DNA of 64,000 nt, taken from assembly GCA_040902205.1 (NCBI GenBank), contig JBBDXR010000035.1, positions 272-64,271 on the forward strand, read 5' to 3'. Below the pieces are notes generated by a model that was not told the origin of the DNA, ran no database searches, and worked only from the letters and a program-made list of their open reading frames with translations. The translations under genes and the position numbers were made by a program. The stretch's first letter is position 1, and the number at the start of each line of letters is the position of its first letter. The DNA comes from Anaerolineales bacterium. GTDB taxonomy: Bacteria > Chloroflexota > Anaerolineae > Anaerolineales > UBA11579. Shown in pieces: positions 29,920 through 40,629 of the stretch.

Positions 29920-31065
29920 TTAGCCGCCGTAGGGGTCCAGATTGCCGCGGCGGTCTTGTTCCATTTCCAGCGCTTCGAAGAGCGCCTTGAAGTTGCCCTT
30001 GCCGAAGCCCCGGCTGCCGTGGCGTTGGATCACTTCTATAAAGGAAGTGGGCCGGTCCTGGATGGGGCGCGAGAAGATCTGCAACAGGTAGCCTTCGTCG
30101 TCCCGGTCCACCAGGATGCCCAGTTCGTTGATCTTGTCCAACGGCTCCTTGACCACATCCCCCACGCGCTCCGGCAGCATCTCATAATAGGCATCCGGCA
30201 CGCGCAGGAACTCGATGCCGTTAGCCTTCAGCTTGGAGACCGTCTCGATGATGTCGCCGGTGGCCATGGCGATATGCTGCACGCCTGGAGTAAGGTAGTA
30301 GTCCAGGTACTCCTCGATCTGGCTCTTCTTCTTGCCGTCAGCCGGTTCGTTGATGGGAAACTTGATGCGCCCGTTGCCGTTCTCCATGACCTTAGACATC
30401 AGCGCCGAGTACTCGGTACTGATGTCCTTGTCGTCGAAATGCAGGAGCTGGCGGAAGCCCATGACGCGGTGGTAGAAGTTCACCCAGTGGTTCATCTTGC
30501 CGAGCTGTACATTGCCCACGATGTGGTCAACGGACGCCAGGCCCGCCGAGTCGGCTTCGAGGTCCAGAGCGTGATAGCCGGGCGCGAACGGCCCCTTGTA
30601 CGCGCTGCGGTCCACGAAGACATGCAATACTTCGCCATACGTGTGTATGGCGGAAGTGCGCAGGATCCCGAATTCATCCTTCTCTTCGCGGGGCCCCCAG
30701 GCGCTCTGGCCGCCGCGGGACGTGGTGGCCTTGTAAGCTTCGACCACATCCTTCACCTGGATGGCGATAACTTTGACGCCATCGCCGTGGGTCAAATGGT
30801 GGCCGGCGATCTCGTGCGAAGGCCCATAGGGCGCCGAAACGACGAAGCGGATCTTGCCGGATTCGAGGACATAGGAGGCGAACTCACGGTTGCCGGTCTC
30901 GAGGCCGGAATAGGCCACGGGTTTGAAGCCAAAGCCCTTCCACCACCAGTACATGGCTTGCTTGGCGTTGCCTACATAAAAATGTAGGTGGTCGACGGCT
31001 TGGATCTGCAAGAAATCGCCCTCTTCGGTCATCGGGCGGGTTTCGGGTTGTTTCACGTGGGCCAT
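29920..31065 (-). CDS. hppD: 4-hydroxyphenylpyruvate dioxygenase
   Basis: DHIVGNV, PINEP...SQIEEY, GVQHIA, GYLLQIF, FIEVIQR, GFGKGNFKALFEA. Confidence 0.97.
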   Translation of the reverse strand: MAHVKQPETRPMTEEGDFLQIQAVDHLHFYVGNAKQAMYWWWKGFGFKPVAYSGLETGNREFASYVLESGKIRFVVSAPYGPSHEIAGHHLTHGDGVKVIAIQVKDVVEAYKATTSRGGQSAWGPREEKDEFGILRTSAIHTYGEVLHVFVDRSAYKGPFAPGYHALDLEADSAGLASVDHIVGNVQLGKMNHWVNFYHRVMGFRQLLHFDDKDISTEYSALMSKVMENGNGRIKFPINEPADGKKKSQIEEYLDYYLTPGVQHIAMATGDIIETVSKLKANGIEFLRVPDAYYEMLPERVGDVVKEPLDKINELGILVDRDDEGYLLQIFSRPIQDRPTSFIEVIQRHGSRGFGKGNFKALFEALEMEQDRRGNLDPYGG

Positions 31066-34086: not shown

Positions 34087-35388
34087 ATGACCGCAAGCTT
34101 TCCTCGGGATTCCGCCCGGATACCCGGTTTCTATAACTTGCCTCTGGCCCAACGCCAGGCGCGCCTGCGCGCCCTGGGCCTGGGCGCGGCCGAGGTGGCC
34201 GCCTTCGCTACCGGCGGCCTGACCGCCGAGTCCGCCGACCACATGATCGAAAACGTGGTCGGCACTTTCAACCTGCCGCTCGGCATCACCCTGAACTTCG
34301 TGGTCAATGGCCGCGAGGTGCTGATTCCGATGGTCATCGAAGAACCCTCAGTGGTGGCAGGTGCCTCTTTCATGGCCAAGTTGGCACGGCCGGGCGGCGG
34401 CTTCCGCGCTTCCGCCGATGCGCCCGAAATGATCGGCCAGATGCAATTGCTGGACGTGACCGATTTGGACAAGGCGGCCGCCGCCATCGAGAAGGCCAAA
34501 GCTCAATTGTTGGCCGAGGCCACCGGGATCGACCCCGTGCTGCAAAAGCTAGGCGGCGGACCGCGCGACCTTGAAGTTCGACGCATTGAAGAATCGCCTA
34601 TCGGTCCGTTCCTGGTCTTGCATCTGATCTACGACGTGCGCGACGCCATGGGCGCCAACGCGGTCAACACCGCCTGCGAACGCCTGGCGCCGAAGATCGA
34701 AGCGCTCACCGGTGGGCGCGTGCATTTGCGCATCTTGAGCAACCTGGCCGACCGGCGCTTGGCGCGCGCCGATTGCACCATCAACCTGAACGAACTTGCC
34801 TTCGGCGAGTTCAGCGCCGAAGCGGTACGTGATGGCATCATCGAGGCTTGGGCATTCGCCGCGGCTGACCCGTATCGCGCGGCCACCCACAACAAAGGCA
34901 TCATGAACGGCGTGGACGCGGTGGTCATCGCCACGGGCAACGACTGGCGCGCTGTGGAAGCCGGAGCCCACGCATTTGCATCGCGCTCCGGCCGCTACAC
35001 CTCTCTAAGCACCTGGAGTAAGGATACGGATGGCAACCTGGTTGGCGCTCTCGAGATGCCGATGGCGGTTGGCATTGTGGGCGGCGCCATCAAGGTTCAT
35101 CCCGCGGCCCAGGCTGCCCTTAAATTGATGGGCGTGAGCACTGCCGCCGACCTGGCGCAGATCATCGTTTCAGTCGGGCTAGCGCAGAACCTGGCAGCCC
35201 TGCGCGCCCTGGCCACCGAAGGCATCCAGCGCGGCCATATGAGCTTGCACGCCCGGCAAGTAGCCATCGCCGCCGGTGCTAAGGGCGCCGCGATCGATAA
35301 GCTGGCTGGCCAGCTGGTGAAAGAAAAGACCGTGCGCGTTGACCGCGCCGAGCAAATCTTGAAGGATTGGACCAATGGTAACCACTGA
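34087..35388 (+). CDS. mvaA: HMG-CoA reductase, class II
   Basis: [42 protein letters not shown]. Confidence 0.96.
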
Positions 35389-36460
35389 TCACGACCACGA
35401 ACACGCCCGTGTGCTAAAACCCGAGAATCCGGTCGGCATCGTGGGCTACGGCGCCTACGTGCCGCGCTATCGTTTGCCGGCGCGCGAAGTGGCGCGCATC
35501 TGGATGGACGGCACTGGCGGCCTGCCCATCGAGGAGAAGTCAGTGCCGGGGCTGGATGAGGACGTGGCCACCATGTCCATCGAGGCGGCGCGCAATGCGC
35601 TGGCCCGCGCCCAGATCAACCCGCGCGACTTGCGCGCCGTGTGGGTCGGCTCTGAGTCGCACCCGTATGCGGTCAAGCCCACCTCCACCATCGTGGCCGA
35701 AGCCATCGGCGCGGTGCCCAGCACGCAGGCCGCCGATTGGGAGTTCGCCTGCAAGGCGGGCACCGAGGCTATGGTGGCGGCCATGGGCTTCGTGGGTTCC
35801 AAGATGGCGCGCTACGCGCTGGCCATCGGCATGGACACTGCCCAGGGCCGCCCGGGCGACGCGCTGGAATACACCGCCGGGGCGGGCGGCGCCGCCTTCA
35901 TCATTGGCCCTGGAGCGGAGTCGCTGGCGGAGATCGAAAGCTCCTATTCGTTCGTTACTGACACGCCGGATTTCTGGCGCCGCCAGTATGCCAAGTATCC
36001 CGAGCACGGCCAGCGCTTCACCGGCGAGCCCGCCTATTTCAAGCACATCACCTCAGCCGGCGAGGCCATGTTCGAAGCCACCGGCACCAGGCCGGAAGAT
36101 TACGCTTACGCCGTCTTCCACCAACCCAACACCAAGTTCCCTCAACGCGCCGGCGCCATCCTGGGCTTCAAGCCGGAGCAGATGGCGACTGGCTTGCTGG
36201 TGCCGCGCATCGGCAACACCTACTCCGGCGCCGCCATCATTGGCCTCACCGCCATCCTGGATGTCGCCAAACCCGGCGAGCGCATCATGATGGTCTCCTT
36301 CGGCTCCGGCGCCGGGTCGGACGCCATGGTGTTGCGCGTCACGGACAAGATCGCCGGCAAGCCGGAGCTGGCCACCCAGACCGAAGAGTACATTGCCCGC
36401 CGCACGGAGATCGATTACGCCGAGTATGTGCGCATGCGAGGAAAGCTGACAATGAAGTAA
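35375..36460 (+). CDS. mvaS: HMG-CoA synthase, archaeal type
   Basis: [18 protein letters not shown] (catalytic Cys), FHQPN (catalytic His), [16 protein letters not shown]. Confidence 0.95.
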
Positions 36461-36494
36461 CTAGTAAGTAGTAATTACTATTTACTAATTACTG
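36456..36494. repeat. Back-to-back inverted 7-bp arrays (AGTAANT x3 / TTACTAN x3) between mvaS and the thiolase gene
   Basis: AGTAACT AGTAAGT AGTAATT ACTATTT ACTAATT ACTG; the mvaS TAA stop lies inside the first unit. Confidence 0.75.
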
Positions 36495-36510
36495 AACAGA
36501 TGAGGATCAC

Positions 36511-37671
36511 ATGACAAATGTAGTTATTGCTGGTATCGGCCAAACGCCCGTCAATGAACACTGGGAGATCTCGCTGCGCGAGCTGGCTTTCCAGGCCATG
36601 GAGGCCGCCATGCAGGATGCAGGCGGCTTGCGGCCCAATGCGCTTTACGTCGGCAACATGTTGGCTAGCGCCCTTTCACACCAGGCGCATCTTGGCGCCA
36701 TGCTGGCCGATTTCGCCGGCCTCACCGGCATCGAAGCCGCCACCATCGAGGCCGCCGGCGCCTCGGCAGCCATGGCGCTGCGCGTTGGTTATCTCGCCGT
36801 GGCCTCCGGCCTGGTAGACGCCGCCATGGTGCTGGGCGTCGAGAAGCTCAGCGACCAAGTACCCGCCCAGGTGGAGAGCGCCCTGGCCATGGGCAGCGAC
36901 ACAGATTACGAAGCCGAACAGGGGCTCACGCTCACCGCGCAAGCGGCCATGCTCGCCCAACGCTACATGCACGAATTCAAGGTTCCGGACCACGCCCTCG
37001 GCGGCTTCCCGCTCACCGCGCACGCCAATGGTGCCCACAATCCCAATGCCATGTTCCGCAAGGTGGTTAAGCCGGAGACCTACGCCAAGGCCGGCATGGT
37101 CAGCGCTCCGCTGAACATGTTCGATGTGGCTCCGAACGCAGACGGCGCGGCAGCGCTGCTGCTCACCCGCGCTGACCTGCTGCCACCGAAGTTTCCAAAT
37201 CCCCTGGTGGAGATCATTGGCTCCAGCGCGGCGACCGATACCTTGGCGCTGCACGACCGGCCCGATCCGCTTACCTTCAATGCGGCCAGATTATCCATCG
37301 AGCGCGCTTGCGCCCAGGCCGGGATCCTTCCCAAGGACGCGGATTTCTTCGAACTCTTCGATGCTTTCTCCATTTATGGTGCGCTTTCTATGGAAGCGGC
37401 CGGCTTCTCGCCAAAGGGCGAGGGCTGGAAGTGGGCGCAAAATGGCGCAATCAAGCTGGACGGTGAAATGCCCATCGCTACCCTTGGCGGCCTCAAGGCG
37501 CGCGGCTTCCCTGGCGGCGCCACCGGCGCCTACCAGGCCGTCGAAGCCGTGATCCAGTTGCGCGGTCAGGCGGGGGAAGCCCAGGTGAAGGGTGCAAAGA
37601 CCGCCCTGGTGCAAAGCCTGGGCGGCCCGGCCTCCACGGCGGTCACACACGTGTTGAGAACAATCAATTAG
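36511..37671 (+). CDS. Archaeal-type thiolase-fold protein lacking the canonical catalytic residues
   Basis: Thiolase pattern throughout (VVIAGIGQTP, LGVEKLSD, ADGAAA, GGLKARG.P.GATG), but EAAGASA, LFDAFS and RGFPGG replace EAACASG, HD.F and GHP. Confidence 0.9.
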   Translation: MTNVVIAGIGQTPVNEHWEISLRELAFQAMEAAMQDAGGLRPNALYVGNMLASALSHQAHLGAMLADFAGLTGIEAATIEAAGASAAMALRVGYLAVASGLVDAAMVLGVEKLSDQVPAQVESALAMGSDTDYEAEQGLTLTAQAAMLAQRYMHEFKVPDHALGGFPLTAHANGAHNPNAMFRKVVKPETYAKAGMVSAPLNMFDVAPNADGAAALLLTRADLLPPKFPNPLVEIIGSSAATDTLALHDRPDPLTFNAARLSIERACAQAGILPKDADFFELFDAFSIYGALSMEAAGFSPKGEGWKWAQNGAIKLDGEMPIATLGGLKARGFPGGATGAYQAVEAVIQLRGQAGEAQVKGAKTALVQSLGGPASTAVTHVLRTIN

Positions 37672-37699
37672 ATCGCGCTTTTTCATTACAATCCAGGAG

Positions 37700-39174
37700 A
37701 TGCAGAAGGATCAAATCCCATTCTGGGCAGGGTTAATTTCCTTGGCGGTCCTCGGTGTGATTGCGGTGGCCGTGGTGACGCGTTGGGGAGTTGGCCTCTT
37801 TGACCTGGACTCCTTCAACTACCTCGCATCGGCACGTAGCCTGGCTGTCGGGAACGGCTTGCAGGTGCCCGTCAGTCCTACCTCGCTTCGCCCGATGCTT
37901 TATTTCGCTCCTCTGCTTCCTGCCGTACTCTCTGTTTTTGAATTGGCTGGTGTCGATGCGATGGATGGCGCCCGCTGGTTCAACGCGGCCTTGTTTGGAG
38001 TGAACCTGCTGCTTTTTTCGGCCATTGCTTACGGTTTTTCGCGTTCCAAGGTCATCGCCCTGGCTGCTGCGTTCCTTTTTCTGTTCTCAGCGGATTTACT
38101 GGTAGCTCACTCTTGGGCGCTAAGTGAACCGTTGCTAATAACCTTCATGTTGGCCAGCCTTCTTGCCTTTCATATATGGGTGAAAAGAAGAGAATTCGTC
38201 TGGGTTTTGGTGTTGTGGGTCTGCGTCGCCTTGGCTGTGCTGACCAAGTTCGTGGCCGGAGCCTTAGTGCCTGTTTTTGTGCTTCTATTTTGGTCGACCA
38301 ATCTCTCTCGGCGAGACAAGCTCGTCTACTCAATGGGGACTTTGCTATCCGGTTTGATTCCATTTTTGTTTTGGTCATTGAGGAGTTATTTGTTATCGGC
38401 TTCGTTCCATGGTTTCAGTTTTGGCTATGTTCCCCTCGGACGAGGTAATCTGATTAGCGCGTTTTTACATTCTTTACGTGGGTTGTTCCCGAAGGCTGGC
38501 TATTCGGGCGCGAAACGCTATTTCTTGTTTTGGCCGTTTTGTGGGCCACCGGCGCGGGGGTTTATCTGGTGAATGGGATGAGAAAACTGGGATCTACCGC
38601 GTTGACGGTGCCTATCTTTGCCATCCTCCTTTTTGCTTCTTATATGGTCCTGGTCGTCTTCGCCAAGACCATGTTCGATCATGGTATCGGCCTCCAGGAC
38701 CGCATGCTTATCCCGCTATTCCCATTCCTACTGCTCGCGGTGGTTTTTATTGCCCATCGGCTATCAATAGAGGATCAGCGAGGAAAACTGCTAGCCATCG
38801 CAATTGTCGGCTATTTGGCCATTGTTTCCGTTATCGGCTCATTATCCACCTTGCCAACTGTGTACGAAGAAGGGTTGGGCTGGAATGCGCGCAACATCGT
38901 TACTTCACCGGCGATTGCGGAACTAAAGGTCATTGCCTCCTCTCCTGAGAATGTTCTGTTTAGCAACGAGACTTACGGAATGTACTTCCATACAAAACGG
39001 GTGGGTTATAACCTGAATAGCTTCCCACCAGCCGAGACTGCAGATCCCGTATATTTGGTCTTATTCAAGGTCCAACGCAACGATCCGCATCCCTTGCCCG
39101 CCAGATACACGGATGAGCTGAAGTTGATCATTGAGGATAATGTCCTCTCTATCTACTTGTTTATTCCTAAGTAG
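37700..39174 (+). pseudogene. ArnT/PMT (GT-C, GT39-like) membrane glycosyltransferase split by a frameshift
   Basis: DSFNYLASARSLAVG, FAPLLP, SEPL, LTKF motifs. ORFs 37700-38572 and 38530-39174 join if one T is added to the T5 run at 38462-38466 (AFFTFFTWVVPEGWLF). Confidence 0.8.
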
Positions 39175-39201
39175 TCTGATAGATACCGGGGAATACTGAA
39201 T

Positions 39202-39351
39202 CCACCGGGGTGCCTACCAGGCCGTCGAAGCTGTGCTCCAGCTGCGTGGCCAGGCGGGCGAGGCCAGGTGAAGGGTGCAAAGACCGCCCTGGTGCAAAGC
39301 CTGGGCGGCCCGGCCTCGACGGCTGTGACGCATGTGCTGCGCGTGACCTAG
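39202..39351 (+). pseudogene. Second, divergent copy of the thiolase 3' end (direct repeat of 37520-37671)
   Basis: Encodes ...AYQAVEAVLQLRGQAG/QVKGAKTALVQSLGGPASTAVTHVLRVT*. 54 bp are identical (39264-39317 = 37581-37634); synonymous changes and small indels elsewhere. Confidence 0.92.
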
Positions 39352-39450
39352 GTCATCTGTCACGTGAACTAATAGTCGAACAGCCCTATTTTCCCAACGG
39401 TGAACGCATAGGCTATCCAAGTTGACTTTCGTAAACCATTGGGAGGAAGT

Positions 39451-40143
39451 ATGGAAAAGCAGGTTTCGGTTAATAAGATCCCGCGCCCCTACACGTTATT
39501 AGTAATTCTTGTATTACTCGTATTCTGTTTCCTTTTTTTGCTCACAGATAACACCTACTACCGTTTTGCCAGTTCGATATTTCCTGTAATCGACAATTCC
39601 TCATGGTTGGCAACTCTGTGGGGCTTGTTCTCGCGACTGCACTTGTTATTGATCATTATTCCCCTTGTGGTTTGGCGGCCAAGATTATTCGGATTCCAAA
39701 TTGGGAAGATCTATCGACATTGGCGCACGCTGCTTGTGTTCCTGATATTGAATTGCGGCATCGTTGCCGCGTATTTCTTGATTACTGGAAGTTCCTCCCC
39801 TTACAGTGGGAACCAATGGTTTTTTAGCGAAGTCGTCACTGTCCCCATAGTCGAAGAGATTTTTTGGCGCGGATTGGTTTTTGCAGCCTTGTTGGCTATT
39901 TTTCGAAGAATGTACGATGAAAACGCCAGCGCACATCTTTCGGTATGGTCCAGTGGAGTCGCCTTTGGGCTTTTACATGCGGGGAATGCCTTGGCGGGAG
40001 TCCCTTTGGCTTTCGTCGCCATACAGACGCTTAGCGCAGTAATTTGGGGTGTGCTTTACGGGTATGCTCGCGCGAAAACCGATAGCATTTATCCTGCCAT
40101 GTTTTTGCATGCGGCCATGAATTTGGTAGTTGTCCTGTTCTAG
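39451..40143 (+). CDS. CPBP (Abi/CAAX-like) intramembrane metalloprotease
   Basis: PIVEEIFWRG, FGLLH, HAAMN motifs; GGAGG RBS; low GC. Confidence 0.9.
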   Translation: MEKQVSVNKIPRPYTLLVILVLLVFCFLFLLTDNTYYRFASSIFPVIDNSSWLATLWGLFSRLHLLLIIIPLVVWRPRLFGFQIGKIYRHWRTLLVFLILNCGIVAAYFLITGSSSPYSGNQWFFSEVVTVPIVEEIFWRGLVFAALLAIFRRMYDENASAHLSVWSSGVAFGLLHAGNALAGVPLAFVAIQTLSAVIWGVLYGYARAKTDSIYPAMFLHAAMNLVVVLF

Positions 40144-40221
40144 TAGATTAATAATACTAACCAGACCTGATAGCTTTTGATAGTCTCCGCCGATTAAAGT
40201 CTAGGCTGATAAGGAGCAGCC

Positions 40222-40629
40222 GTGGATATCCCGCGCCATTGGAGACTAAACAAGCAGCGCTACGCCCTGGTGGGTGAAGTCTGTGAGCAGTGCAATGCCA
40301 AGCTCTTCCCGCCCCGTGACATCTGCCCGGAATGCGGCGAGGAAGCCAAGACCTTGTTCCAGTTCAGCGGCAAGGGCGAGGTGTATTCCTACACCACCGT
40401 CTACGAAGCGCCCGAAGGTTATGCCGAACAGGCGCCATACACACTGGCCATGGTCAAGTTGAGCGAAGGCCCCTTGGTCACCGCTCAGCTCACCGACCTC
40501 GGCGCCCAGAAGCCGGCCATCGGTATGCCCGTCGAGATGGTCACCCGTTTGCTGCGCTCCGCCACCGACGAGCGCGGCATGCTAATCTACGGGTACAAGT
40601 TCCGGCCAGCGGTAGCGCAAGCCGCGTAG
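40222..40629 (+). CDS. DUF35-type Zn-ribbon/OB-fold protein (thiolase/HMGS scaffold family)
   Basis: CEQC...CPEC, GKGEVYSYT, PY.LAMVKL.EGP.VTAQLTD, IGMPVE.V.R, YGYKFRP. Confidence 0.92.
   Translation: MDIPRHWRLNKQRYALVGEVCEQCNAKLFPPRDICPECGEEAKTLFQFSGKGEVYSYTTVYEAPEGYAEQAPYTLAMVKLSEGPLVTAQLTDLGAQKPAIGMPVEMVTRLLRSATDERGMLIYGYKFRPAVAQAA

Follow-up and report, generated by a model that had tools for sequence, protein, structure and literature searches.

The 64-kb stretch of DNA analysed here (the window; 64,000 nucleotides of contig JBBDXR010000035.1 from an Anaerolineales bacterium) carries a mevalonate-pathway operon in which the gene for an archaeal-type 3-hydroxy-3-methylglutaryl-CoA (HMG-CoA) synthase (HMGS) is followed by a gene for a thiolase-fold protein of 386 amino acids (36511-37671, + strand). 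To judge from its sequence, the latter gene descends from an archaeal-type acetoacetyl-CoA thiolase subunit that has lost thiolase chemistry. We consider it likely that its product is a pseudoenzyme, retained as a non-catalytic structural subunit needed by the archaeal-type HMGS.

The motifs IEAAGASA, ELFDAFS and RGFPGGATG all lie within the single open reading frame at 36511-37671, which contains no stops. When the protein was aligned by HMMER with archaeal thiolases of solved structure, G83 was found opposite the nucleophilic cysteine (ieaaCasG), F283 opposite the histidine of the HDxF motif (evHDaF or evHDcF), and F333 opposite the histidine of GHP or GHA. The alignment with characterised archaeal thiolases, proposed as a check in an earlier reading of the sequence alone (the original prediction), therefore bore out its claim that Gly, Phe and Phe replace the three catalytic residues in a full-length protein. 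Homology to archaeal mevalonate-pathway thiolases extended from end to end (residues 1-384), and the best structure matches were the P. furiosus enzyme (7YVY, E 2.5e-97) and the thiolase of the M. thermolithotrophicus complex (6ESQ/6ET9, E 2.7e-61). The protein nevertheless scored under the curated NCBIfam cut-offs (NF053570, 311.7 bits against 600; NF004720, 366 against 420). An AlphaFold2 model was confident and contained a complete thiolase fold (mean predicted local distance difference test score 87.8, predicted template modelling (TM) score 0.90), with weakness only in loops 54-57 and 116-138, and Foldseek aligned it to 7YVY and 6ET9 with TM scores of 0.90-0.93. Loss of the HDxF histidine by mutation (H284A) leaves the archaeal complex unable to form HMG-CoA (Liao et al., Nat Commun 2026, PMC12960953), and Phe283 alone would therefore be expected to inactivate the window protein.

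The other proteins of the operon have kept their functional residues, as had been predicted for HMGS and the reductase. HMGS (35375-36460, + strand, 361 amino acids) is of the short archaeal type (TIGR00748, HMG_CoA_syn_Arc, 533 bits against a cut-off of 353), and its catalytic tetrad E94/C126/H249/N281 (E-C-H-N) is intact. Its start overlaps by 14 nt the 3' end of the gene for a class II HMG-CoA reductase (HMGR; 34087-35388, + strand, 433 amino acids; PF00368, 363 bits; TIGR00532, 410 bits against a cut-off of 260), in which the class II motifs VIEEPS, THNKGI, GNDWRA and QRGHMSLH were found. The DUF35 scaffold protein (40222-40629, + strand, 135 amino acids) consists of a rubredoxin-like zinc ribbon and an oligonucleotide/oligosaccharide-binding (OB) fold (PF12172, PF01796), and its four zinc-ligand cysteines are present. 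Genes of the HMGS, thiolase and DUF35 families, the components of the archaeal tripartite complex, are thus clustered at this locus. The claim that an archaeal-type module is present in a bacterium was correct, and such a module proved to be the norm across the class Anaerolineae, most members of which keep an active Cys-His-His thiolase.

Conservation of the thiolase-like protein was analysed in 80 related loci from species-level Anaerolineae genomes, encoding proteins 63-92% identical to that of the window; together with the window copy these gave 81 orthologues. Glycine occupied the cysteine site in every one of the 81 Anaerolineales proteins, and none contained a stop codon; since the substitutions are common to all orthologues, they cannot be attributed to chance or error. 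The two histidine sites varied, with His in 26, Phe in 26, Tyr in 21, Cys in seven and Asp in one protein at the HDxF site, and Asn in 48, Phe in 27, Tyr in five and Asp in one at the GHP site, as would be expected after release from catalytic constraint. The partners did not share in this drift: the HMGS tetrad was invariant (72/72 orthologues), as were the zinc ligands of DUF35 (70/70), and the gene order HMGR-HMGS-thiolase-DUF35 was retained in nearly all of the 80 related genomes. Annotated homologues of the thiolase-like protein come from metagenome-assembled genomes (MAGs) of Anaerolineales and Chloroflexota, and 544 species-level genomes match the C-terminal motif pattern of the clade. 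In the phylogenetic tree, the window protein fell within a clade whose members all lack the cysteine (40/40 rows, support 96), and at least three independent losses of the cysteine were seen among operon copies in the class.

Selection on the operon was estimated from ratios of nonsynonymous to synonymous substitution rates (dN/dS; Nei-Gojobori method, NG86) in 15 close genomes. The ratio for the thiolase-like gene was 0.080, compared with 0.057 for HMGS, 0.048 for DUF35 and 0.108 for HMGR; this analysis, also suggested with the original prediction, indicated strong purifying selection and showed no sign of neutral evolution. As pairwise dS was saturated, live and dead lineages were compared only by dN normalised to HMGS, which gave a rough value of ~1.5 for Cys-less and ~1.1 for Cys-bearing lineages (dS being partly saturated), suggesting modest relaxation in the former. 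The protein thus lacks residues that are essential in its active homologues and is kept by purifying selection, as is characteristic of pseudoenzymes. The proposal of a conserved pseudoenzyme acting as a scaffold agrees with these data: the dN/dS is 0.08, operon and partner residues are kept, and catalytic sites drift.

We compared 68 operon copies carrying the Cys-His-His set (live) with 105 Cys-less copies (dead), column by column. Ninety-four columns were at least 90% conserved with the identical residue in both sets, and 13 were conserved in the live set only; these included the His and Phe of HDxF and the residue after GHP. Several of the 13 relaxed columns lay in or beside loop 116-142, and the stretch 116-138 is that of the lowest confidence in the structural model. 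No column had switched to a new conserved residue between the 68 live and 105 dead copies, and the only columns specific to the dead set were three weak, non-polar ones (A84, S99 and A124). In the wider family, a representative search of 1.84 billion proteins revealed at least 6-10 losses of the cysteine, which was replaced by G, D, S, E, A, N, Q, T or P. Varied replacements together with drifting histidine sites fit decay of a catalytic site rather than convergence on a new enzyme. In terms of sequence, therefore, the drift of the histidine sites and the lack of newly conserved residues point to a pseudoenzyme and not to a new enzyme.

Could the Cys-less fold nevertheless have been recruited, as in Ltp2, Sal or TbSLP, to other chemistry (retro-aldol, decarboxylase or on CoA esters, for example), in this case chemistry that feeds or regulates HMG-CoA synthesis? 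We regard this as rather unlikely, though real enzymes do exist among Cys-less thiolase folds. The steroid side-chain aldolases Ltp2-ChsH2(DUF35) and Sal-Shy(DUF35) (6OK1, 9MYR; PMC12329534) pair such a fold with a DUF35 domain, and are distinguished by a conserved catalytic tyrosine (in YDHF for Ltp2 and YDCY for Sal), a DUF35-hydratase fusion and a steroid-catabolic context, none of which is present in the window. A tyrosine is found at the HDxF histidine site (ELYDAF) in 21 of the 81 orthologues, the glycine at the cysteine site is invariant in the order, and purifying selection on the thiolase-like gene is as strong as on a working enzyme. However, the window protein has Phe at the position of that tyrosine and its orthologues have H, F, Y, C or D, and because the position varies, its residue cannot be a conserved catalytic base; aldolase-like tyrosine chemistry was rejected on these grounds. 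None of the columns is newly conserved, the three dead-specific ones being neither polar nor catalytic, and independent Cys-less lineages differ at the cysteine site (G, D, S, A, E or T), which speaks against convergence on new chemistry. Genes for a hydratase, or for steroid or polyketide metabolism, are missing from the gene context as well. A functionless relic, either a recently inactivated thiolase heading for loss or a product of sequencing or assembly errors, is hardly credible. An insertion does separate the DUF35 gene from the thiolase-like gene, and the copy of one relative is frameshifted, but the same losses without stops in all 81 orthologues, across 63-92% identity, and the dN/dS of 0.08 refute this explanation, and the Cys-less clade is old and large.

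The thiolase-like protein had also been proposed to be the inactive half of a heteromeric thiolase, which would dimerise with an active paralogue encoded elsewhere and join the complex as a heterodimer. We find this very improbable. There was no second thiolase in the 64-kb window, as had been noted in advance, and a search of the proteins of the whole genome (2.46 Mb, 92% complete) with the thiolase-like protein as query, a check that had been proposed together with the heteromer, retrieved only the protein itself and its own 3' fragment; no second archaeal/SCP2-type thiolase was detected at E <= 1e-3 in this 92%-complete genome. A partner of the archaeal type was therefore rejected. A PF00108 search identified two canonical type-II thiolases, on contigs C11 and C25, both of which pass TIGR01930 and carry the Cys, NEAF/NEAY, GHP and CxG motifs; they belong to a distant subfamily. 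In favour of a heteromer, an extra, stand-alone archaeal-type paralogue with an intact Cys-His-His set (~47% identity) is encoded by three other members of the order (G035, G077 and G114), but this is not located beside HMGS or DUF35. These paralogues (L199, L200 and L201) occur in addition to a Cys-less operon copy, and in G114 the gene is flanked by acyltransferase-like genes. Several Anaerolineae families also have a separate clade of paralogues outside the operon, in which Thr takes the place of the nucleophile and both histidines are kept (L207, L208, L210, L211, L214, L215 and L216).

HMG-CoA synthesis would still be needed by the cell. IspH and Dxr were absent from the 92%-complete window genome, and a mevalonate kinase and an archaeal-type isopentenyl phosphate kinase are encoded side by side on contig C2; given this combination, HMG-CoA must be made, and the mevalonate pathway is apparently the only isoprenoid route of the cell. 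The contig C2 genes, along with the absence of IspH and Dxr, point to the alternative (isopentenyl-phosphate) mevalonate route. They form a second mevalonate cluster (C2:49673-52281), together with a gene resembling UbiA-type prenyltransferases, a call judged by eye from the N-terminal sequence. The operon HMGS would be expected to obtain acetoacetyl-CoA from another enzyme of the cell. A 3-hydroxybutyryl-CoA dehydrogenase gene lies ~0.5 kb downstream of the C25 thiolase.

The distribution of canonical thiolases was surveyed across the class. They were absent from 24 of 121 Anaerolineae genomes, and in 23 of these 24 the operon thiolase carried the Cys-His-His set, the exception being a genome that is 86% complete. 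The operon thiolase could be typed in 113 genomes: where it was Cys-less, a canonical thiolase was present in 30 and absent from one, and where it was of the Cys-His-His type, a canonical thiolase was present in 59 and absent from 23 (Fisher p = 0.004). The pattern agrees with loss of the cysteine being possible only where another thiolase exists, and is suggestive without amounting to proof.

When isolated from the archaeal complex, the thiolase subunit is reported to be insoluble and HMGS to be inactive; within the complex, a fused CoA-binding chamber is formed at the HMGS-thiolase interface (Vogeli et al., 2018, as cited in PMC12960953). From the co-conservation of the three genes we infer that the window proteins may likewise assemble physically, with a shared CoA-binding chamber. 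The thiolase-like subunit would still associate with the DUF35 protein and the archaeal-type HMGS, and this assembly would keep HMGS soluble and catalytically competent; the subunit would probably also supply its own half of the chamber. Acetoacetyl-CoA would be made outside the complex by a free canonical thiolase, most plausibly the C25 enzyme, HMGS would condense it with acetyl-CoA, and the class II reductase would then form mevalonate. The variant channelling complex envisaged in the original prediction is not supported: with the thiolase active site lost, the complex has no product of its own to channel, and acetoacetyl-CoA must arrive from solution. It is possible, and we put it forward tentatively, that archaeal-type HMGS is structurally 'addicted' to its thiolase partner: once a free canonical thiolase is available the active site of the partner decays while the protein itself cannot be lost, and the Cys-less subunit still binds the CoA moiety and hands free acetoacetyl-CoA to HMGS. 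If this were true, the subunit would be a substrate-presenting pseudoenzyme with at least 3-4 separate origins in Anaerolineae and, probably with archaeal lineages among them, at least 6-10 in the family as a whole. No RNA runs containing the window sequence were found, with matches only in DNA metagenomes from sediment and soil.

Several observations weigh against a structural role for the thiolase-like protein, or limit what can be said for it. The association between loss of the cysteine and presence of a canonical thiolase rests on only ~3-4 independent losses, and a phylogenetically paired test had 2-4 usable pairs and no power (p = 1); with so few independent events, the Fisher p of 0.004 can only be suggestive. 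One operon copy, that of G055 (L217, 190-1336), which has Ser at the cysteine site, contains a 1-nt frameshift near codon 140. Among the roughly 200 copies inspected, no other candidate pseudogene was seen; the frameshift may be an assembly error, or else it indicates that loss of the subunit can occur. The glycine at the cysteine site is invariant in the order while both histidine sites drift, and an invariant glycine is not obviously needed by a pure scaffold, though it may be explained by packing at the strand-turn-helix 'elbow'. Finally, the operon is split by a 2.55-kb insertion, and tight co-translation is therefore not essential.

Comparison with known systems places the window operon among the descendants of the archaeal complex. 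As that complex (reported in 2018) is described in PMC12960953, it comprises the same three families encoded by clustered genes; its thiolase subunit is 35-36% identical to the window protein (TM score 0.92), and the likeness extends to an HMGS of the archaeal type with the E-C-H-N tetrad and a DUF35 protein with a zinc ribbon and OB fold. In contrast to the thiolase subunit described there, the window subunit is without Cys85, His284 and the GHx His, so that it cannot make acetoacetyl-CoA and the complex can neither couple nor channel the two reactions. The window protein scored 312 bits against an NCBIfam equivalog cut-off of 600 bits based on the archaeal enzyme, and its host is a bacterium with HMGR fused into the same operon. 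The closest solved structure is the P. furiosus thiolase PFC_04095 (7YVY; 44% identity, TM score 0.90-0.94), which, unlike the window protein, keeps the full Cys-His-His set. A Cys-less member of the family has been crystallised from Sulfolobus tokodaii (ST0096, 4YZO). It has Ser at the nucleophilic cysteine site (vdntSgsgg), retains both histidines, and is 25-26% identical to the window protein; a literature search found no published function or paper for it.

Other bacterial descendants of the tripartite complex are PhlACB of Pseudomonas, MucABC of Streptococcus and PfACAT/HMGS-DUF35 of P. fluorescens (PMC12960953). The live thiolase-like subunit of PhlACB and MucABC depends on a dead HMGS-like subunit for assembly and for activity (Liao et al., Nat Commun 2026, PMC12960953). 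These systems are the mirror image of the window operon: their HMGS-like subunit has lost E-C-H-N and their thiolase-like subunit keeps Cys, whereas the window operon pairs an intact HMGS with a dead thiolase. They have also left the mevalonate pathway, which the window system still serves. The PhlC/MucB Friedel-Crafts acyltransferases are recognised by a retained Cys and an HMGS-like partner without E-C-H-N (PMC12960953), and the window operon shows neither feature. Nor does it show the Tyr signature of Ltp2 and Sal (YDxF/YDCY, PMC12329534), with Phe in the window and H, F, Y, C or D in orthologues.

We found no published Cys-less thiolase in a mevalonate operon of Chloroflexi or Anaerolineae in the searchable literature, and no published description of a live HMGS with a dead thiolase, the mirror case having been published in 2026. 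In hundreds of genomes of Chloroflexota, the annotation of this gene reads 'acetyl-CoA C-acetyltransferase' or 'thiolase domain-containing protein', and metabolic reconstructions that use it as the first enzyme of the mevalonate pathway are wrong for such organisms. Taken together with PhlACB and MucABC, the window operon suggests that each of the two catalytic subunits of the ancient HMGS/thiolase/DUF35 machine can become inactive and yet be retained. A natural dead variant makes the need of archaeal-type HMGS for its partners directly testable. Should the shape of the thiolase be all that HMGS requires, the complex could be re-engineered to work with whichever free thiolases are preferred.

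The insertion merits description, as it bears on the position of DUF35: the DUF35 gene does lie downstream of the thiolase gene, as predicted, but does not adjoin it. The 2.55-kb spacer (37672-40221) contains three elements, none of which belongs to the module. The first, a PMT-like membrane glycosyltransferase (PF02366; 37700-39174, + strand), is split into two overlapping reading frames (37700-38572 and 38530-39174), and this part of the insertion shows a dip in GC content to 0.495. It is followed by a 140-bp insertion scar (39206-39345, + strand), in which the final ~47 codons of the thiolase-like gene are duplicated with a frameshift; the copy matches amino acids 338-384 with 78-87% identity, contains one in-frame TGA and aligns at the DNA level to 37520-37671. 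The third element is a gene for a CPBP/Rce1-like intramembrane protease (PF02517, E 1.1e-17; 39439-40143, + strand), which had no match in any of the 80 related loci. At this spot, two relatives (L019 and L034) have the glycosyltransferase gene split in the same way; the nearest relative, L015, lacks it and has a gap of 62 bp. The spacer measures 60-200 bp in most relatives and 62-4734 bp in close relatives of the window, and is an insertion hot spot among the latter, with enlarged spacers of 300-4734 bp. DUF35 beyond the insertion is still intact and under strong selection.

Two further observations concern the surroundings and relatives of the operon. Genes of the homogentisate pathway (4-hydroxyphenylpyruvate dioxygenase, fumarylacetoacetate hydrolase and homogentisate dioxygenase) lie just upstream of it on the opposite strand (window 29920-31065, - strand, and upstream; L011, 1-4030; L012, 1-3497), and this arrangement is conserved even in relatives with 69% identity. 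The acetoacetate that fumarylacetoacetate hydrolase releases might be an additional source of acetoacetyl-CoA; the neighbourhood may also be no more than synteny. One locus labelled 'Bacteroidota bacterium' (L085, JBLMZU010000399.1) carries an Anaerolineae-type operon whose thiolase-like copy, with Gly, His and Phe at the three catalytic positions (G-H-F), is nested among Anaerolineales in the tree; the label probably reflects a binning or labelling error in that MAG.

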